From a bacterium (lineage in GTDB: Bacteria; Verrucomicrobiota; Kiritimatiellia; CAIKKV01; CAIYGI01): a DNA stretch of 64,000 nucleotides. A model generated the notes under the pieces. It was not told the DNA's origin, searched no databases, and was given only the letters and a program-made list of their open reading frames with translations. Positions 10,787 through 17,843 of the stretch are shown one piece after another; the first letter of the stretch is position 1, and each line of letters begins with the position of its first letter. The position numbers and the translations under genes are program-made. Where the stretch lies: the NCBI GenBank assembly GCA_025360745.1, contig JANYBP010000043.1, forward strand, positions 10,455 to 74,454, written 5' to 3'.

Positions 10787-11068
10787 TCATCGTCTTACCG
10801 GCGTCTTGTAGGTAATGCGACCGTCTCGAACTGTCAAAATAACAGCTATGATTGGACCTTCTGGGTCTGTGCGAAACGCATGATTGTGCGTAATCGTCCC
10901 GTCTTCATTCGTATGAACATAAAAATCAATTCCCAGCAGAGGAGCCACTTGGACGTATTCGCTTCCCAAAACTATTCTGTCATAAACCACCTGTTCTGGA
11001 TTATTTTTCTGACCACCGCATCCGCTCGCCGTCCAGAGCAGAAGAAGGAAAATGCACAAGCGCCGCAT
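10787..11068 (-). CDS. Small lipoprotein (hypothetical)
   Basis: Signal peptide with lipobox LWTASGC. 93 aa. In the low-GC islet. Confidence 0.5.
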   Translation of the reverse strand: MRRLCIFLLLLWTASGCGGQKNNPEQVVYDRIVLGSEYVQVAPLLGIDFYVHTNEDGTITHNHAFRTDPEGPIIAVILTVRDGRITYKTPVRR

Positions 11069-11108
11069 TACGCACCTCCCACCATGGCAAATAAAACTTT
11101 TTAATTCT

Positions 11109-11537
11109 CTACTCTCTGCCGATCTTTATCGGCGCTTTCTGAGCGACACTCATTCTACCCACAAAATGCAAACAGGCTGAAAGCCCTCCGATCATCAAAG
11201 CATTTGCATACGTTGTCCAGCGCACAGTTAAGGCTGTGCTGGTATAATTATAGACCATAGCGCAAACCACACCTACAGTCAGGATAAGACCCACGGCAAG
11301 TTTACCTACAGTGTTTTCATTCACAATTGGGTTCCCTAATCCCCGTTCACGTTCAATACGATGCCGCACCAGCATCGCAATCCCGTGAATGAGCAAAACG
11401 ATTGCAGCACCACACACCACATCGATCCACATTGAACGCCTCAATGTCTCCAGCATATAGAGTGACACCCCCCCAAGAACGACTACCATTCGCCGACGAT
11501 TCGTTCTTTTTTTGCCATCACAAGTCATATTTGCCAC
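11109..11537 (-). CDS. Small multi-pass membrane protein (candidate immunity protein)
   Basis: 3-4 predicted TM segments. No recognisable domain. Downstream of the toxin-like gene on the same strand. Confidence 0.45.
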   Translation of the reverse strand: MANMTCDGKKRTNRRRMVVVLGGVSLYMLETLRRSMWIDVVCGAAIVLLIHGIAMLVRHRIERERGLGNPIVNENTVGKLAVGLILTVGVVCAMVYNYTSTALTVRWTTYANALMIGGLSACLHFVGRMSVAQKAPIKIGRE

Positions 11538-11594
11538 TCTATTTTCCTATCAGGTTATAACGAAACACCAAAAACTTTGTTCCCACCCAAACAC

Positions 11595-11897
11595 CTACTC
11601 GCAAAACATCGAGCCCGCAGTCAGCACACCCTTGACTTTTTCTCGGAGTTTTCTCAACAACGCCAAGAATAAACCTGCCATCGCCCCGATGACTGCATTC
11701 ACCAGAAAGCAGAATGGAAGAAGTCGCCATGCGAGATCCAGTCCTTTTCCGCTGTGCGCAAATTGGCACCCCCTTCGTGCCTGCATCCGACTATTTCGAG
11801 TGGCCACAATGCTTTCGTTCGCCGGTGAATGCACCAATGACGGCCCATGTGGTTTGCAAAACGCCAGAGACAACCCATCCGAAAAGTAGTGAGACAA
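11595..11897 (-). CDS. Small membrane protein (uncertain; may start at internal Met about 11786, or be fused by frameshift to 11791..12150)
   Basis: Hydrophobic C-terminal half (LLPFCFLVNAVIGAMAGLFLALL). Overlaps the upstream ORF by about 107 nt in another frame. Confidence 0.3.
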   Translation of the reverse strand: MSHYFSDGLSLAFCKPHGPSLVHSPANESIVATRNSRMQARRGCQFAHSGKGLDLAWRLLPFCFLVNAVIGAMAGLFLALLRKLREKVKGVLTAGSMFCE

Positions 11898-12150
11898 CTA
11901 CATCGATTGCTGAGAACAAGAAGGTAAAGCAAATGCCCCAAATACCCACCACAGCCTTCGGCGTGTTTCCCGAGAACACAAATAGTACATCTTCCGGAAA
12001 GCACTTCCACCACTCCAGCAGACTTGGAGGAGGTCCCTTCACTCGACTGCCGAAATCGACGAACATCAAAGTTATAAAAATCAATGTCGAGATTGTGAAC
12101 CACAGTGGTCTACATGCTATTATCTTGGATCTCAAAATTGACTGGACCAT
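11791..12150 (-). CDS. Small multi-pass membrane protein (candidate immunity protein)
   Basis: Three hydrophobic segments. Starts 13 nt downstream of the RHS-tail toxin-like gene stop. Confidence 0.45.
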   Translation of the reverse strand: MVQSILRSKIIACRPLWFTISTLIFITLMFVDFGSRVKGPPPSLLEWWKCFPEDVLFVFSGNTPKAVVGIWGICFTFLFSAIDVVVSLLFGWVVSGVLQTTWAVIGAFTGERKHCGHSK

Positions 12151-12162
12151 ACGAAAGACCTC

Positions 12163-12939
12163 TCAATGACATGGGCCAACGTCTTGCGCTGAACAACCCC
12201 CGGTTATGAGTTCCGAGAATTCTGCCCCGGGCCAGAATGCCCGTTCGGTATAAGCCCCTCCTTCTCCGACAACTTGAAGGAGATCTACCCACGAATTTCC
12301 GATCTCAAGCACCTTCACCTTTGTGTCCTGCCAGTTTGCAAGAACCGTTTGGCGCCCCGGACCTGTAGCGCCCTTGGCATATCCCCGAATCGAATCACCA
12401 AGATTATAACTCTTCGCGCTGCCAATTGTCGTATGAACTCCCGCGTAGCCGTCGTATCCGGTCCATTGGGACTGGAACTGCCAGGAACATGTCACAAGAA
12501 AAGTCCTGCAACACGAATGCCTTGCTTTGACCCAGATTCGTGTTTCAGTATCACACAAATAGTTCCTGTAAAAAGGCAACGTTGTGCATGTCACAAATGC
12601 AGCGGCCGAACTACTCTCGCGAGGTCCAGAAGCCCATGCTCGTTTGCTAACCCCCCGATTATTGTCGCAGTCTGACTGCCCCCAAGACTTCCATTCTAAC
12701 AACCCGAGGGGATCCAACATATCTATTGTTCGATTGCGGACAAAAACATACAACGTTGGCGGCGGCGGACTCTTCGGAACCCCTCTGCGAATACCCACGG
12801 AATCGGTTGCATGCCGTTCATCTCCCAACGGATCTCTATTGAGCCATCTTCCCTCGTCCGGATGGTAATACGCTAGGGCCTTAACAACCAAACTACTTAA
12901 AATCAAACAACTCAAAAGAAAATACCGTATGCTTTTCAT
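12163..12939 (-). CDS. Secreted mini-RHS-tail protein: signal peptide plus RHS core-end/DPxGL motif plus novel Cys/Trp-rich C-terminal (toxin-like) domain
   Basis: MKSIRYFLLSCLILSSLVVKALA signal peptide, then YYHPDEGRWLNRDPLGDE ... TLYVFVRNRTIDMLDPLGL. This matches the RHS repeat-associated core terminal consensus (YYDPxxGRWxxxDPxG ... LYxYVxNNPxxxxDPxGL). No YD repeats anywhere. About 170-aa C-terminal domain of unknown family. Confidence 0.6.
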   Translation of the reverse strand: MKSIRYFLLSCLILSSLVVKALAYYHPDEGRWLNRDPLGDERHATDSVGIRRGVPKSPPPPTLYVFVRNRTIDMLDPLGLLEWKSWGQSDCDNNRGVSKRAWASGPRESSSAAAFVTCTTLPFYRNYLCDTETRIWVKARHSCCRTFLVTCSWQFQSQWTGYDGYAGVHTTIGSAKSYNLGDSIRGYAKGATGPGRQTVLANWQDTKVKVLEIGNSWVDLLQVVGEGGAYTERAFWPGAEFSELITGGCSAQDVGPCH

Positions 12940-14530
12940 GACTGCCCCTTTTGTTTTCTGGATCCCTCCAGGAATTTGTATTCATCAGCGTCTGGTACAG
13001 CAATGCCGAGGCAACGGTGCCGTCTTTGGAATCTTTCTTCACTTGATCCCGCATAAGTTGATTAAGTCTAGCAATATCCACGCCCTCCTTCTTCCTCAAG
13101 TTGTCCGCATAAGTTTTCACCGTCGCATGTTGTTTTTCACGCCCGTGTTGCTTGAGACAGAGTGCCCGTAACTCCAAGAAGGCGGCCAGTTCCCTTTTTG
13201 GAGACAGGGACTTCATGTACATTCCCGTTTCGAGTTCCTCCTTGGATATAGGCCAGGGCCACTCCATGTATTCCTGATCCGGATAACAGTTCAACCCTCG
13301 ATTAGTTCCTTCGATATTGAAGCGATCCTTGGCATCTTCCCACCTTACAAATAGGTGGCCTTTGCATTCGACAAGTTTCAGGGGATACCCCAGCCGCCTG
13401 CCGACGGCAACATAGAAGACAGGTAAGGATGCGCACGTTCCCTGATGCGCGGCCTCTGTCAGGCCGTGAATAAAAAGATCATGAGAATTTCCAAAGAACG
13501 AAAAGTCATTGCGGATGACTTCCACCGGTCCAGCCCGCATCTTCGGATCCTTGTTGTAACATACCTTGAAATCTTCCTGGAGGACGCAAATCATCATCAG
13601 AACGCGAAAGTATGCTTCAGAATTATTGAACTCTTCAGGTGTTTTCTGAAATTTGTAGAGATGCCTGTCTGTCTCATGTTTGACCCAAGCCGCCAACTGA
13701 TCGAAATCATTCCGCGTTTTCTCGACATCGAGTTTCTCTGCACCAGGTAGTCCCTTGGCCGCAAGGAGATTGATTTCGGCAATATCGTAGTCTTTCGAGG
13801 ACGCCTTCTTTTCCAGCATCTCGCACAAATTGAGTTCAGCGGTGTCAAAACCCTCGCCAACGGGGTGCGGGCGAATGCCAATCGATTCCTGTTTTGGGCG
13901 AACATCCAAGCCCGGGCCCCGCATAAGCCTCAAATTTTGCTGGTTAATTTCTGCTGTCCGCTGGAGTGACACTTGTCTTAGGCGCTCATTCTGTTGCTGT
14001 ATCTTGTCAGAATATTCATCGTCCGCCGACCTTGCAGACTGCCCGTTCCCTGATGACGTCTGCTTTATGTGTTCTTGTTCCTGTATATTCAGTTGCCCTT
14101 TATTTACTTCCAGCGCTTGCTGTTGGTACTCTTGAAACTCCTTCGTTGTCGCGACCTGAAGTTCGATTCTACTGAGTTCACGTTTCATTTCTATCACGTA
14201 TTCTTGCAGATGCGGCGGAATTGCGTTCGTGTGCGTGGACGATAATGCTTCCAAATTTCTTCTTATTTTCATGGCTCGTAACTCGAACTCGTCCATAGCC
14301 ATCTGTTGATTCACGATGTTCTGTTCATCTTGTTCAAGACTCAGTCTTTTGGCGGTTATGGCAAGTTGCTCCGGGTCTGTGTAACCTGCAACTCTGCGAC
14401 TATTTTGTGCAAAGACTGGAAACTCTGCCAGAACAAGCGGTAGAATGGTTGCAAGTGCGGTTAGCAAGATGCTGACACGCGGGAGCAATCTCGGTTTTCG
14501 TCGCTCGCTACTCATAAAAGCCGTTTGCAA
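12893..14530 (-). CDS. Secreted coiled-coil protein with C-terminal transglutaminase-like cysteine-protease domain
   Basis: N-terminal signal/TM. About 250 aa Gln/Glu-rich coiled coil. C-terminal GTCASLPVFYVAVGRRLGYPLKLVECKGHLFVRWED...FNIEGT matches the transglutaminase-like core (GxC ... ALGIPAR ... HAWVE ... D). 3' end overlaps the next gene by 47 nt. Confidence 0.6.
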   Translation of the reverse strand: MQTAFMSSERRKPRLLPRVSILLTALATILPLVLAEFPVFAQNSRRVAGYTDPEQLAITAKRLSLEQDEQNIVNQQMAMDEFELRAMKIRRNLEALSSTHTNAIPPHLQEYVIEMKRELSRIELQVATTKEFQEYQQQALEVNKGQLNIQEQEHIKQTSSGNGQSARSADDEYSDKIQQQNERLRQVSLQRTAEINQQNLRLMRGPGLDVRPKQESIGIRPHPVGEGFDTAELNLCEMLEKKASSKDYDIAEINLLAAKGLPGAEKLDVEKTRNDFDQLAAWVKHETDRHLYKFQKTPEEFNNSEAYFRVLMMICVLQEDFKVCYNKDPKMRAGPVEVIRNDFSFFGNSHDLFIHGLTEAAHQGTCASLPVFYVAVGRRLGYPLKLVECKGHLFVRWEDAKDRFNIEGTNRGLNCYPDQEYMEWPWPISKEELETGMYMKSLSPKRELAAFLELRALCLKQHGREKQHATVKTYADNLRKKEGVDIARLNQLMRDQVKKDSKDGTVASALLYQTLMNTNSWRDPENKRGSHEKHTVFSFELFDFK

Positions 14531-14718
14531 AATGCGCTGGCGAACAGGTTAAAATGATCTAACTGACAAGGTGATGTGCGCTTCGAGGGCAATATACCAA
14601 GCGAAATCTACGTTAGAAGCAATAGATTGCAAGTTCTTGAACCCGTTTCTAGATGAATTCCGGTTCGGCATGCAGCCGAAATTGGCCCGTCCCCGTCGCC
14701 TTCTTCGGGTTGCCAACA

Positions 14719-15387
14719 TCAAGGGGCGGCATGTTTCCCAACGTCCAATGGAATTACAATGCGCTCTCCAATGACAAGCGCACGCTCAGCGTCAATCCTA
14801 TTGGCCTTCATGATCCCCGCACTGGTGACTCCGAAGGCTTCTGCGACTGTCCGAATGGTATCCCCCCTCTTTGCTATATAAGACATCATGACTTGCTTCA
14901 CATTTTCTGTTATTGATGTTTTGCCATAACCGCCATCGCCATTTTTTACTGGAGCGCGCCCATCGAAGTTATCGCTCAGATCGACAACCCTGGCGCTTTG
15001 TCCCTTGCCAGTTCCCAAAATATCCGTGAGCTGTCCTAGTCGACTGTCGATATCTGCTATAGCCACCTCGTTGTTGAATCCCATTTGCCGCCAACTGATG
15101 CGAATCCGCGTGCCACTTACAAGAGTTGCCTCCACATATTTTTGCGACGTCACGTCAATCTGAACCAAGCGCATGCCTCTATTCCAAGCGCGTTCATATA
15201 ACTGCAACGCCACGCAGAACGATGTCGCGCCGACTATTCTTACCCGGTCTTCTTGCGTGCTGTTCACTGCTTGAGTCGGACTGACGCGCAGACTGTCATC
15301 GTCAGTTCTCTCCACAACCCAAACCGGATCAGCTCCACAACTTACTGCACAAAGCATTACCAATAGGCACGCATGCATATGATTCAT
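14719..15387 (-). CDS. Lipoprotein with C-terminal LysM peptidoglycan-binding domain
   Basis: Lipobox AVSCG. C-terminal YIAKRGDTIRTVAEAFGVTSAGIMKANRI...GERIVIP is a LysM motif. Confidence 0.7.
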   Translation of the reverse strand: MNHMHACLLVMLCAVSCGADPVWVVERTDDDSLRVSPTQAVNSTQEDRVRIVGATSFCVALQLYERAWNRGMRLVQIDVTSQKYVEATLVSGTRIRISWRQMGFNNEVAIADIDSRLGQLTDILGTGKGQSARVVDLSDNFDGRAPVKNGDGGYGKTSITENVKQVMMSYIAKRGDTIRTVAEAFGVTSAGIMKANRIDAERALVIGERIVIPLDVGKHAAP

Positions 15388-15480: not shown

Positions 15481-16503
15481 TTACAACGCCCAGGCGATCA
15501 GTCGCCAGTATCCGGCCAGCAGGGCGCCGGCTACGCCCGCCAGGCGCGCGGACAGGCCGCCGCGCACGCCGGGGGGCGGATCAGGGCGGCCGCCGCACAG
15601 CAGTTCCCTGTCCGAAACGAGTTTGCGCGGCACGAAGGCGCGCCGCTTGCGCAGCGCCCCGGAAAGCCCGCACAGCGCATGCCAGGCGCCGCGCGCAAAT
15701 TCCCCGCCCTGCCCCTTGAACAGGAAGAATACGCCGGCGCAGGCCTGATAAAAGATCAGCGCGGGCAGCGCCAGCCAGAGGGTTTTGGAATCGTAATGCC
15801 GCACCACGAACCACCAGCGGTTGCGGGTCTGCAGCGCGATCCAGCGCGTCCCGCGCGGACGGGCCATATGATACGCCAGCGCCGCGGGCGCCGCGTAACA
15901 GGGATGACCCAGGGCCGCCATACGGAATGCCAGGTCCCCATCTTCCCATCCGAAAAACAGATCCTCGTCAAAAGCATCGGCGGCCAGGGCCGCCGACCGG
16001 TTGTAAAGCGCCGCGCCCGCGGAAACCGTGCCGACCCGCGCGGGCTCATCGCCGCGGGGCCGGTAGACCACCACCTCGGCGGCGTAGTGCAGAAAGGCCC
16101 CGCAGTACTGCATTGTTTGCGGTTCGGCATGCAGCCGGATCTGCCCCGTCACCGCACCCGCGCCGGGTTGTGCCGCGAAAACCGCCGCCAGCCGTTGAAC
16201 GTAATCCGGGGCCAGCACGAGGTCGTTGTCCATGATCAGCACGAGTTCCGTTTCCGCCGCGCGCAGCGCCGCGTTGCGCGCCGGATTCGGACCGCGGTTG
16301 TCCGGCATTTCGATCACCTGGACCCGTCCGGCATAACGCGCGCGCAGCAGTGACAGGGAATCGTCCGAGGAGTGGTTGTCCACCGCCAGAATCGAATGCA
16401 AAACGATGCCAGTCTGGGCCAGCACGGAATCGAGGGTTGGCCCGAGCACGGCTGCGCCGTTGTAGTTGATCACCGCGACGGTGATGCCGGCGGCGGCGGT
16501 CAT
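15481..16503 (-). CDS. Glycosyltransferase family 2
   Basis: VAVINYNGAAVL...DNHSSDDS...DNDLVL GT-A fold motifs (DxD). Start ATG overlaps the stop of the upstream deacetylase gene (ATGA 16500-16503). Confidence 0.85.
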   Translation of the reverse strand: MTAAAGITVAVINYNGAAVLGPTLDSVLAQTGIVLHSILAVDNHSSDDSLSLLRARYAGRVQVIEMPDNRGPNPARNAALRAAETELVLIMDNDLVLAPDYVQRLAAVFAAQPGAGAVTGQIRLHAEPQTMQYCGAFLHYAAEVVVYRPRGDEPARVGTVSAGAALYNRSAALAADAFDEDLFFGWEDGDLAFRMAALGHPCYAAPAALAYHMARPRGTRWIALQTRNRWWFVVRHYDSKTLWLALPALIFYQACAGVFFLFKGQGGEFARGAWHALCGLSGALRKRRAFVPRKLVSDRELLCGGRPDPPPGVRGGLSARLAGVAGALLAGYWRLIAWAL

Positions 16504-17843
16504 GACCGGCGGGCTCCGGCCGCGGACGGCGCGGGAAGGTGCAGGTTGGAAGGTGGAGGTTGGAGGGTGGAAGGTGGAGGGTGGAGGGTGGAAGGTGGAG
16601 GGTGGAGGGTGGAAGACGAATCGGTTCCAGCAGTACTCGGGGACGGCGCGGCGATGCGCACGGCATAGGGGAGCAGAACGGCGCGACGATGCACGGAGAG
16701 GGAACTGCTCACCGCCAGGCGGCGGGCGGCGCCCGCGCCTTCACGCCAGGTCGCGCCCACCGACAATTCGCATGCGCCCGGCGTCGCGCTGTCCGGAACG
16801 ACCAGCGGCACTTCCATAACCTGCGCCCACATGTCCGCCCCCTCCGAAAGCACATTATCCGCCTGCGCCAGCATGCGGCCACGCTGGCGCAGGTGGATGA
16901 ATCCGACCAGAGCGGAGGACTCCGCCTCCGCGGGCACGGACCAGTAACACCGCAGCAGCAGGCGTTCGCCTGGCGCGACGGGACCCTCCGGCGCGCCGAT
17001 TCCCAGCAGCGTGACGCCGCGATCGAAGGCCGCCAGCGGCGCTTCGGCGCGGGCGATCAATTCCGGCACGGTCACAAAGGTGTAACCGCGCGCCTTAAGC
17101 GCCGCCAGCACCTGTTCCAGAACCTTGACCACCACGGCGCGGTTGAATCCCAACTGGGTATCGTGTCCATCGTGCAGCAAAAGAATGGCGCCCGAACTCA
17201 CCCGCCGCAGCATGTAATCCGCCATGACTTCCGGCGGATCGTTATGCCAATCGTAGGCATGCACCGAGACGCCGACATTGATCTGGTTTTCGGCCCGGCA
17301 CAGTCCCGCCAAACCACGATAGCGGCGGTCGGCGGCGCTGACGCCAACGGCCTTGGCGCCCGCCTCCTCATCCGGCCCGAAAATGCCGAAGGGATCGCGA
17401 AATAACACCGGACGCACACCCGTCACGGCGGCGATGGCGTCGGCGCCGTGACGGATCTGGTCGCGCCGTTCCGCATACGAAATCCGGTCGAAGCGCGGAT
17501 GGTCGTAGGAGTGGTTGCCGATCGCATGGCCGGCCTGCAACATACGCCGCACCGTGTCCGGACTGCGTTCGACATTGGTGCCGACGAGGAAAAAAGTCGC
17601 CCGCACCGACTCGCGGTCGAGAACGTCGAGCACCTGCGAGGTGTAGGGTTCATTCGGACCATCATCGAAGGTAAGCGCCACCACGCGCCCCGCAACCGGC
17701 ACATAACTTACAAGATCGCCCGCTTGAGGCCTGAAGGGCAGCCGTTCCGGTCCGCGGCATCCCGCCAGCGCAAAGACAGCGATAAAAACGAGCACGGAGG
17801 CACAAAGGGCTTTAATAGCGCATCGCACAACTTTCATGCGCAC
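16500..17843 (-). CDS. Polysaccharide deacetylase (NodB/CE4) lipoprotein with Pro-rich repeat tail
   Basis: Lipobox LAGC. NodB motifs TFDDGP...HSYDHP. C-terminal (STLHPPP)n tail encoded by a GGTGGA-type tandem repeat. Confidence 0.85.
   Translation of the reverse strand: MRMKVVRCAIKALCASVLVFIAVFALAGCRGPERLPFRPQAGDLVSYVPVAGRVVALTFDDGPNEPYTSQVLDVLDRESVRATFFLVGTNVERSPDTVRRMLQAGHAIGNHSYDHPRFDRISYAERRDQIRHGADAIAAVTGVRPVLFRDPFGIFGPDEEAGAKAVGVSAADRRYRGLAGLCRAENQINVGVSVHAYDWHNDPPEVMADYMLRRVSSGAILLLHDGHDTQLGFNRAVVVKVLEQVLAALKARGYTFVTVPELIARAEAPLAAFDRGVTLLGIGAPEGPVAPGERLLLRCYWSVPAEAESSALVGFIHLRQRGRMLAQADNVLSEGADMWAQVMEVPLVVPDSATPGACELSVGATWREGAGAARRLAVSSSLSVHRRAVLLPYAVRIAAPSPSTAGTDSSSTLHPPPSTLHPPPSTLQPPPSNLHLPAPSAAGARRS
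16541..16620. repeat. Tandem GGTGGA/GGGTGGA-type repeat (coding, Pro-rich tail); a dispersed second copy of the motif lies at 47150-47200
   Basis: ttggaaggtggaggttggagggtggaaggtggagggtggagggtggaaggtggagggtggagggtggaag seen directly in the sequence. Confidence 0.8.

Follow-up and report, generated by a model that had tools for sequence, protein, structure and literature searches.

The locus

Two overlapping genes lie on the minus strand of the window, the whole 64 kb stretch of DNA that was analysed. The upstream gene (12893..14530, −), assigned from its open reading frame (ORF), domain matches and an AF2 model, encodes an exported protein of the PF13369 type, with a transglutaminase (TGase) fold and TPR-like helices. 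The downstream gene (12163..12939, −), recognized by its ORF, RHS tail motif and signal peptide, encodes a Sec-exported `RHS-tail' polymorphic toxin of 258 amino acids. The first-pass annotation had called the upstream ORF and placed its stop 47 nt inside the downstream one, both of which are exact: according to the ORF coordinates, the overlap (12893..12939, −) is read in two different frames: it holds the final 15 codons and the stop of the TGase-like gene together with the 16 codons at which the toxin signal peptide begins. A hydrophobic ORF of 119 amino acids (11791..12150, −) follows 13 nt past the toxin gene and is, by its position, a candidate for the toxin immunity protein. A promoter and terminator scan of the region from 10.5 to 15.6 kb gave no signal above shuffled sequences worth interpreting.

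Read from its TTG start, the TGase-like ORF spans 545 amino acids; an ATG at nt 14515 (codon 6), giving 540 amino acids, is the probable true start, and an independent gene call of the same length (P0127) falls in the same 90% cluster. The N-terminus carries a predicted Sec-type signal or signal-anchor (aa 1–41; 14408..14530, −), defined by hydrophobicity and a conserved AxA↓Q, in which a basic n-region (RRKPR) precedes a hydrophobic segment (aa 19–41, modelled by AF2 as a helix over 19–35) that terminates in VFA↓Q; here and below, cleavage sites (arrows) were assigned by eye and from hydrophobicity. The signal or transmembrane (TM) segment anticipated in the first reading is thus present, and AxA↓Q is kept at the equivalent place in full-length homologues. 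An N-terminal hydrophobic segment, with AxA↓Q, a lipobox-like LxxC or a TM anchor, was found in 76 of 97 homologues, lipobox-like and TM-anchor-like N-termini being common among them.

The signal is followed by a Q/E-rich region (aa 50–205; 13916..14383, −), which the AF2 model folds into three long helices (53–97, 106–161 and 169–204) and whose structural matches are helical hairpins such as that of prefoldin. This region, found solely in what we term the long-form subfamily, had initially been described as about 250 residues of heptad-like sequence. Its Q/E-rich, helical character stands, but it spans only about 155 residues and a simple Fourier test gave no significant 3.5-residue hydrophobic periodicity, so that the model supports long helices and a heptad coiled coil is not borne out.

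Fold, family and putative catalytic triad of the TGase-like protein

The remainder of the protein comprises a TGase-like α/β core followed by TPR-like helices (aa 226–500; 13031..13855, −), delimited by the homologue profile and by a pLDDT above 90 throughout the AF2 model of this stretch; this is the architecture of PF13369. The window protein itself scores 20.0 bits (E = 5e-4) against PF13369, below the gathering cut-off of 23.5, whereas 93 of the 97 aligned homologues match at E ≤ 0.01 (the best at 7e-11), 34 of them also matching TPR_2. The TGase/papain-type fold proposed earlier is therefore upheld by the homologue matches, the AF2 model and structural matches, although not through PF01841 (Transglut_core), the family suggested for the search: PF13369 alone was reported by Pfam at E ≤ 1, with no match to PF01841 or to PF06035 (LapG-type BTLCP) and no peptidoglycan-binding domain. 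Sequence searches of the PDB, with the protein and with the 97-sequence profile, yielded no relative and merely weak TPR similarity. The top structural match was menin (PDB entries 3re2 and 3u85; about 10% identity), and Foldseek matches to catalytic TGase-fold enzymes (PNGase) were weak and not significant.

A putative triad is formed by Cys366 (codon 13433..13435, −), the presumed nucleophile in QGTCAS at the N-terminus of helix 369–379, His392 (13355..13357, −), the first residue of strand 392–398 in KGHLFVRWED, and Glu407 (13310..13312, −), on strand 402–409 in RFNIEGT. In the AF2 model these residues lie canonically on helix, strand and strand, the placement expected of TGase/papain-fold cysteine enzymes. 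The earlier assignment had been made to depend on a Cys–His pair conserved in homologues, and the triad proved to be essentially invariant across 379 homologous domains (Cys in 369/370, His in 369/372 and Glu or Asp in 371/371); Asn405 is likewise conserved.

PF13369 (Transglut_core2), which includes E. coli SirB1/YchA and human FBXO21, is a family of unknown function (PMC10318531) that shares with the window protein the same HMM and the same core and TPR-like helices; the long helical N-terminal region is an addition of the latter. E. coli YchA, encoded within the prfA–prmC–ychQ–ychA–kdsA gene row, has Ala and Gln at the positions aligned with Cys and His. Because this member lacks both residues, the toxin-linked clade is taken to be under selection for the triad, and it differs further from PF13369 at large in being exported and in being coupled or fused to RHS-tail toxins.

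A shell-less RHS toxin

The toxin consists of a signal peptide (aa 1–23; 12871..12939, −), identified by its N-terminal features and ending in …KALA↓YY, a remnant of the RHS C-terminal core (aa 24–80; 12700..12870, −; YYHPDEGRWLNRDPLG…DMLDPLGL) and a variable, Cys-rich C-terminal domain of its own (aa 81–258; 12166..12699, −). The remnant corresponds to the last ~57 residues of the RHS core (YYxPxxGRWxxRDP…DPxGL) and was recognized by motif, by alignment and by a sub-threshold match to TIGR03696 (21.3 bits, E = 2.8e-4; cut-off 32.5). Both aspartyl-protease positions of RHS proteins are kept as Asp36 and Asp76; among 117 aligned tails, Asp36 and Gly79 are invariant and Asp76 is at least 90% conserved, and residues of the tail correspond to Asp1324, Asp1346 and Trp1350 of RhsA. 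In a homologue search the toxin found matches through its signal peptide and tail alone, its C-terminal domain having none, and Pfam gave nothing for this domain or for the candidate immunity ORF.

The downstream gene had been labelled an RHS-tail toxin, a name justified by the RHS C-terminal core motif and its DPLGL, but the protein has no RHS shell at all: there is no RHS_repeat Pfam match and the signal peptide abuts the tail, replacing the RHS protein through residue −13 from the first Asp, a position at which the full-length RHS proteins encoded at the related loci have Arg. The 64 kb window contains this single RHS tail and no long RHS ORF.

With canonical RHS/YD-repeat toxins (T6SS Rhs effectors, TcB–TcC and WapA) the protein shares the Asp-dyad C-terminal core, a conserved PxxxxDPxG[L/W/F] boundary at which recombination occurs, a hypervariable toxin beyond it and the existence of orphan cassettes. 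Unlike them, it has no YD-repeat cocoon and no PAAR/VgrG or TcA context, and its conserved partner is a TGase-fold protein.

A conserved two-gene module

The functional link between the two genes, first proposed from their overlap, is supported by their neighbourhoods elsewhere. The related loci number 78 and come mostly from the PVC superphylum; MAGs related to Prosthecobacter and Lacunisphaera (L045 and L036) are represented. At 64 of the 78 a tail-toxin lies immediately downstream of the TGase-like gene (start at most 250 nt past its stop, on the same strand), whereas random placement, tried 2000 times, gave 4.8 such pairs on average and never more than 12; the other 14 TGase-like genes have no immediately downstream tail gene. 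A reciprocal search starting from the tail recovered TGase-like genes in 10 contigs. All-against-all clustering of the ORFs of 81 loci detected no third conserved component, the TGase-like and tail-toxin families alone being shared. At every long-form locus the tail motif begins exactly 23 nt past the TGase-like stop, in an identical overlap register, while at short-form loci the two genes are separated by an intergenic gap instead of overlapping.

The two proteins also occur as single chains, in the order TGase-like domain (triad intact), linker, RHS tail and variable C-terminus. This fusion family includes P0154, P0156, P0157, P0167, P0171, P0174 and P0317, among others, the last of which carries a WHH/colicin-DNase C-terminus. 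No recognisable Sec signal was found in the fusion clade, and an AF2 model of a natural fusion gave a pLDDT below 50 for linker and tail, with no confident docking. A MacB-type ABC exporter adjoining P0154 was considered as a secretion route and rejected, being absent at all other loci.

Toxin cassettes are often arranged in arrays of two to four, and 102 of 131 carry a signal peptide of 20–28 amino acids ending in AxA right before the tail. Sequence similarity among cassettes stops right after D..GL: 107 toxin C-termini fell into 94 clusters, 84 of the 107 being singletons, and the known toxin domains among them are PLA2, Ntox44, a Tle1-like lipase, HNH and Peptidase_M91. C-terminal domain families are common to the tail-toxins and the true RHS proteins of the same loci, and at L040 the TGase-like gene lies directly upstream of a full-length RHS gene whose product bears a signal peptide. 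Orphan cassettes at L001, L004 and L006 keep a remnant of the 3′ end of the TGase gene. Directly after the toxin, L002 encodes an ankyrin-repeat protein, and small unrelated ORFs follow the toxins at other loci. The cassettes thus display the hallmarks of polymorphic toxins, namely a conserved leader with hypervariable C-termini, known toxin domains and displaced copies with recombination scars. The pair in the window is one example of a large polymorphic-toxin module made up of two genes.

Clustered at 50% identity, the signal-peptide–tail toxins make up no fewer than 1343 protein clusters. No published description of a TGase-like/RHS-tail toxin module was found in the literature, an apparent match on Shewanella vesicles proving unrelated, and the small secreted RHS-tail toxins are apparently a widespread and undescribed family. 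The closest precedent is the `inactive transglutaminase' domain that follows the signal peptide at the N-terminus of Sec-dependent RHS toxins and was described as an inactive anchor (Zhang, de Souza, Anantharaman, Iyer & Aravind, 2012; PMC3482391). Such domains form one chain with a complete array of RHS repeats and have lost at least one triad residue (PMC3482391), whereas here the domain is encoded by a separate, translationally coupled gene or belongs to a tail-only fusion, all three triad residues are invariant and the partner toxins are shell-less.

A possible role in toxin maturation

The adjacency, the fusions, the diverse arrays and the lack of any other shared family therefore point to an accessory role for the TGase-like protein, which most likely binds and processes the conserved toxin tail. 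Our preferred reading, to which we give slightly less than an even chance, is that it serves as a conserved extracytoplasmic accessory and tail-processing cysteine peptidase of Sec-dependent, shell-less RHS toxins. Its cellular location, its binding to the tail, its proteolytic chemistry and the cleavage site are what we infer in the following scheme. Both proteins would leave the cytoplasm via Sec, and signal peptidase would bare the toxin N-terminus exactly where the ~55-residue RHS tail starts ([YF]YxPxxGRWxxRDP…DPxGL). The TGase-fold/TPR domain would then recognise this tail, and Cys366–His392–Glu407 may act on it as a cysteine peptidase, so that the variable toxin domain is set free or matured. 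In the long-form subfamily, to which the window protein belongs, the ~155-residue helical region would form a stalk separating the signal sequence from the enzyme domain. Several results weigh against this scheme: the sub-threshold Pfam score of the window protein, the non-significant matches to PNGase, the inactivity attributed to the TGase domains of earlier RHS toxins (PMC3482391), the low pLDDT of linker and tail in the modelled fusion, the fusion clade without a recognisable Sec signal and the 14 TGase-like genes that no tail gene directly follows.

LapG is a periplasmic protease that cuts the N-terminal retention module of LapA. Together with the releasing peptidases described for polymorphic toxins (PMC3482391), it offers a working analogy, that of a periplasmic TGase-fold protease with a Cys–His–acid triad cutting the N-terminal module of an exported partner, although the TGase-like protein, with no PF06035 or PF01841 match, is not a member of the LapG/BTLCP family.

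The more far-reaching view, that these pairs form an undescribed toxin-maturation or delivery system of PVC bacteria in which a catalytically intact PF13369 enzyme replaces the RHS cocoon, captures the ~55-residue plug/aspartyl-protease remnant at the N-terminus of the mature toxin and triggers or performs release extracytoplasmically, is rather doubtful but deserves to be taken seriously.

Menin, a eukaryotic nuclear scaffold, has no catalytic triad and binds MLL and JunD peptides in a central cavity. At about 10% identity the resemblance to the TGase-like protein is a structural analogy alone; menin, the best structural match, and E. coli SirB1 are both non-catalytic, which counts against catalysis. 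It is conceivable, if on balance unlikely, that the TGase-fold/TPR domain is likewise a non-catalytic scaffold, chaperone or anchor that merely binds the tail, holding the toxin at the envelope, preventing it from acting or folding while in the periplasm, or passing it on to an outer-membrane export route. Since the tail retains the two RHS autoprotease aspartates, together with the DPxGL site, a separate protease may be unnecessary and release could be achieved by aspartyl autoproteolysis of the tail itself at DPxGL. The rank of menin among the structural matches, the triad-less SirB1 and the membrane- or lipid-anchored look of many homologues are consistent with such a role, as is the peptide-binding anchoring proposed for the TGase domains of RHS toxins (PMC3482391). 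That Cys, His and Glu are kept almost without exception across 379 domains is, however, difficult to account for if no chemistry is involved, and the anchoring domains described previously had lost triad residues (PMC3482391).

The conserved triad might instead serve another chemistry on another substrate, such as acyl transfer, transamidation or amidase activity, by which the toxin N-terminus might be cross-linked to a carrier or some component of the envelope, or peptidoglycan remodelled for toxin passage. Papain/TGase-fold transglutaminases, PNGase and NlpC/P60 are precedents, the TGase fold is compatible with a number of chemistries (PMC10318531; PMC3482391), a weak Foldseek match leads to PNGase, and the precise signal-peptidase site would give every toxin the same free N-terminus, [YF]Y. 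We nevertheless regard this as improbable: neither a Gln nor a Lys that could act as a transglutaminase substrate is invariant in the tail, the protein has no peptidoglycan-binding domain and the fusions to the tail indicate the tail-toxin itself as the partner.

TGase-fold toxin domains exist (PMC3482391), and many toxin-free genomes carry PF13369 proteins, for example that of E. coli, where ychA is part of the prfA operon, so that the gene might instead encode an independent effector (a Tox-TGase-like toxin), an immunity protein or a SirB1-like housekeeping neighbour. This is very improbable, being largely refuted by the neighbourhood statistics; the fusions, the conserved overlap and the remnant of the TGase gene 3′ end carried along by displaced cassettes also argue against it, and a polymorphic toxin or an immunity protein would be expected to vary, whereas here the protein is conserved and its partners are hypervariable. 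Among the roles contemplated in the first-pass annotation, which also named a processing protease and an adaptor, the co-secreted effector is the one disfavoured, given this conservation beside hypervariable partners and the lipobox-like or TM-anchor-like N-termini of many homologues. Least probable of all is that ribosomes pass from the TGase frame to the +1 toxin frame within the overlap to make a single polypeptide, as the U-rich runs in the overlap, the 14 open codons in the toxin frame upstream of its ATG and the fused architectures at other loci could suggest, because each cassette, even a distant orphan, has its own ATG, basic n-region, hydrophobic core and AxA site, most long-form loci have an SD-like GGAGG 5′ of the toxin ATG, short-form loci have gaps and no conserved slippery heptamer was identified.

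Conclusions

The toxins described here define a minimal, Sec-dependent and cocoon-less form of RHS toxins, which casts doubt on the idea that the C-terminal core of RHS proteins acts solely within its shell, and their variable C-termini are a rich source of toxin domains yet to be characterised. They are carried by Verrucomicrobiota, Planctomycetota, Kiritimatiellia and Poribacteria, lineages in which interbacterial weaponry has been little studied. Through its tight coupling to toxins, overwhelming by the statistics of the loci, PF13369, a large family of unknown function extending from E. coli to humans, gains its first testable functional context. If an enzyme does indeed stand in place of the cocoon, this would be the first biochemical function for the family of SirB1/YchA and FBXO21, and RHS toxins would be able to work unencapsulated.

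Gene and genomic setting

The TGase-like gene at 12893..14530 of the minus strand is a real open reading frame, as the first-pass annotation had held, and encodes 545 residues from a TTG start, or 540 if translation begins at the ATG at nt 14515, six codons further on. The NCBI call (P0001, 343 residues), which begins at an internal methionine and lacks the signal sequence and the helical region, is probably truncated; the long form is backed by an independent 540-residue gene call (P0127), in the same 90% cluster as the window protein, and by more than 30 full-length homologues. The next ORF on this strand (12163..12939) encodes a 258-residue RHS-tail toxin and starts 47 nt before the stop of the TGase-like gene, an overlap already recorded in that annotation. 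The translational coupling suggested there is consistent with a GGAGGG sequence that, in most long-form loci, precedes the toxin's ATG by 10–13 nt and lies within the conserved NSWR codons, close to where the TGase gene ends.

Both genes lie in a low-G+C island of approximately 4.5 kb (10787-15387; 0.50–0.54 versus about 0.62), probably horizontally acquired, which also contains, on the minus strand, a lipoprotein-like ORF (10787..11068, 93 residues), a multi-TM ORF (11109..11537, 142 residues), a hydrophobic ORF (11791..12150, 119 residues) and the gene for a LysM-domain protein (14719..15387). No integrase was seen at this island; the module has flanking integrases in locus L002 and in the contig of homologue P0009. 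Beyond the island, a 447-residue ORF (16500..17843, minus strand) has a proline-rich tandem repeat, STLHPPPSTLHPPPSTLQPPPSNLH, at its C-terminus (window 16500-16640), and the opposite strand of the same segment reads as GGGWRVE repeats.

Architecture of the TGase-like protein

The window protein starts with a basic stretch, followed by a hydrophobic core (residues 19–41) and VFA|Q, at which position full-length homologues keep AxA|Q, in agreement with the signal or transmembrane segment originally noticed. In an AF2 model built on 97 aligned sequences (mean pLDDT 81.7), the predicted elements are three long helices (residues 53–97, 106–161 and 169–204), a disordered linker (207–225) and a compact domain (226–500) with pLDDT above 90. 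The helical region is indeed rich in Gln (14.7%) and Glu (11.5%), but spans about 155 residues and not the roughly 250 heptad-like residues first described; since a Fourier test gave no significant heptad periodicity, 'coiled coil' is here a description and not a result.

PF13369 (Transglut_core2) matches residues 362–412 with 20.0 bits, under the gathering score of 23.5; the match recurs in 93 of the 97 homologues, TPR_2 being also found in 34, and at the family level the protein probably belongs to PF13369. No sequence-related solved structure was found for it. In the model, Cys366 lies just ahead of helix 369–379, His392 is the first residue of strand 392–398 and Glu407 is on strand 402–409, a predicted placement that is the canonical transglutaminase/papain-fold topology. 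Cys366 and His392 are 26 residues apart and His392 and Glu407 are 15 apart, similar to the spacings in PNGase (27 and 17). Across 379 domain instances, which take in representatives of 50%-identity clusters, the triad is kept (Cys in 369 of 370, His in 369 of 372, Glu or Asp in 371 of 371), and this conserved Cys–His pair, with the PF13369 fold match, bears out the transglutaminase-like core aligned by eye. Escherichia coli YchA/SirB1, a named PF13369 member, has Ala in place of the Cys and Gln in place of the His in a weak alignment that covers the Pfam core. In the 734-residue homologue P0132 the TGase-like/TPR domain is duplicated in tandem, with Arg replacing the nucleophile Cys in the second copy.

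The RHS-tail toxin and its polymorphism

A typical signal peptide, MKSIRYFLLSCLILSSLVVKALA, opens the toxin and is directly followed by YYHPDEGRWLNRDPLG…DMLDPLGL and 178 Cys-rich residues. The motif is the extreme end of the RHS core (TIGR03696, E=2.8e-4, sub-threshold); the toxin has no YD repeats and no long RHS gene was found within the 64-kb window. Pseudomonas protegens RhsA has aspartates D1324 and D1346 and is cleaved after W1350 (PMC8765631), and the window tail likewise retains both aspartates and the DPxG[L/W/F] boundary. The C-terminal domain (12166-12699, 178 residues), for which a search of 5.8 billion proteins gave no homologue and Pfam no match, is an orphan putative toxin domain.

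All full-length homologues with readable context (L001, L002/L003, L004–L006, L008 and the contig of P0009) precede an overlapping gene whose product starts with the same signal peptide and tail and ends in an unrelated C-terminal region, and the tail motif begins 23 nt past the TGase-like stop in every such locus read. Short homologues (about 300–400 residues, without the helical region) show the same arrangement with a downstream tail gene, in MAGs labelled Verrucomicrobiota, Planctomycetota, Poribacteria, Lentisphaeraceae and a few others. Labels at L015, L018, L025, L030, L047, L050, L073 and other loci include Bifidobacteriaceae, Chloroflexia, Desulfobacterales and Nitrospiraceae; these non-PVC labels may be binning errors, because the distribution is otherwise PVC-restricted. 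With a tail HMM, a tail was detected within 250 nt past the stop, on the same strand, for 64 of the 78 TGase-like genes having enough downstream sequence, whereas random placement within the same loci (2000 trials) gave a mean of 4.8 (sd 2.1, maximum 12). At least 1343 clusters at 50% identity match the family at E<=1e-30, and all-against-all ORF clustering of 81 loci revealed no third shared family.

A signal peptide of 20–28 residues ending in AxA stands right before [YF]Y in 102 of 131 cassettes, a further 14 being the termini of genuine RHS proteins. Thirteen positions ahead of the first Asp, the full-length RHS proteins of these loci carry Arg (…YYGYR), and the cassettes carry Ala, at -1 of their signal-peptidase site. 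A tail-side metagenome search recovered signal-peptide tails as well as the ends of canonical RHS proteins; a TGase-like gene was present on ten contigs with signal-peptide tails and absent from five others within their available 1.6–5.7 kb. A common array runs from RHS through signal-peptide-tail cassettes and the TGase-like gene to a further such cassette. At L040 8742-13688 the TGase-like gene directly precedes a 1649-residue full-length RHS ORF with a signal peptide, and L164 5454-6959 is an intermediate 'mini-RHS' (signal peptide, few YD repeats, tail, lipase-like C-terminus), and with the tail-only cassettes these two make up a gradation from the complete shell down to the bare tail.

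Likeness between cassettes ends directly past D..GL, and 107 C-termini fall into 94 clusters, 84 of them singletons, a minority matching families already known as toxins or effectors (PLA2, Ntox44, Tle1-like lipase, HNH and Peptidase_M91). The L002 toxin is followed by an ankyrin-repeat protein, ankyrin repeats being one class of immunity proteins in Zhang et al. 2012 (PMC3482391). Orphan cassettes in L004, L006 and L001 retain a decayed fragment of the TGase gene's 3' end, and this end, with the signal peptide and the tail, is thus the substrate for toxin-swapping recombination. C-terminal families are common to L014:1468-2271 and L050:4280-5035, and to L040:3287-4210 and the L035/L039 cassettes, with canonical RHS repeats ahead in one locus and a signal-peptide tail in another, indicating that toxin modules move between the two carriers. 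In kind, the module is an RHS-lineage polymorphic toxin system.

In a single-chain family (P0154, P0156, P0157, P0167, P0171, P0174, P0282 and P0317 among its members) the triad-intact TGase-like/TPR domain is joined through a linker to RYRNYHPTLGRWIERDP…DPxGL and a variable C-terminus; P0317 has WHH/colicin-DNase domains; L057 holds a further in-frame fusion. Such fusions are classic evidence of two proteins acting together. No Sec signal was recognisable in this clade, even with the ORF extended (L164 7707-9830, P0154: 707 residues); a MacB-type ABC exporter adjoins P0154 and was not found in other loci.

Role of the module

The analysis shows an exported, triad-intact TGase-fold/TPR protein that across its family is strictly coupled, and occasionally fused, to signal-peptide-bearing RHS-tail toxins that are polymorphic; it is very probably their dedicated partner, whatever its chemistry. 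We tentatively favour a mechanism in which the two proteins would come together beyond the cytoplasm, the TGase/TPR domain would recognise the one constant segment of the toxins, their invariant tail, and the triad would act on this tail, in the simplest case as a cysteine peptidase for toxin release or maturation. The main rival, a menin-like non-catalytic scaffold or anchor that binds the tail and leaves release to the tail's own Asp dyad, is a weaker contender: a menin match, the retained aspartates and the precedent of inactive transglutaminases in RHS toxins (PMC3482391) speak for it, but conservation of the triad argues against it. Acyl-transfer or amidase chemistry is doubtful, an unrelated or independent protein very improbable and a frameshift fusion more improbable still. 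The original observation is confirmed, and its interpretation is supported in part.

The closest described arrangement is that of the 'inactive transglutaminase' domains of Sec-dependent RHS toxins (PMC3482391), from which the present module differs in its intact triad, in the placement of the domain in a separate gene or fused solely to the tail, and in having no RHS shell. A full-text literature search found no published description of a TGase/RHS-tail module, which does not prove its absence. For PF13369 (SirB1/YchA-type), the function of which is stated as unknown (PMC10318531), the module offers this uncharacterised enzyme family a specific hypothesis that can be tested.
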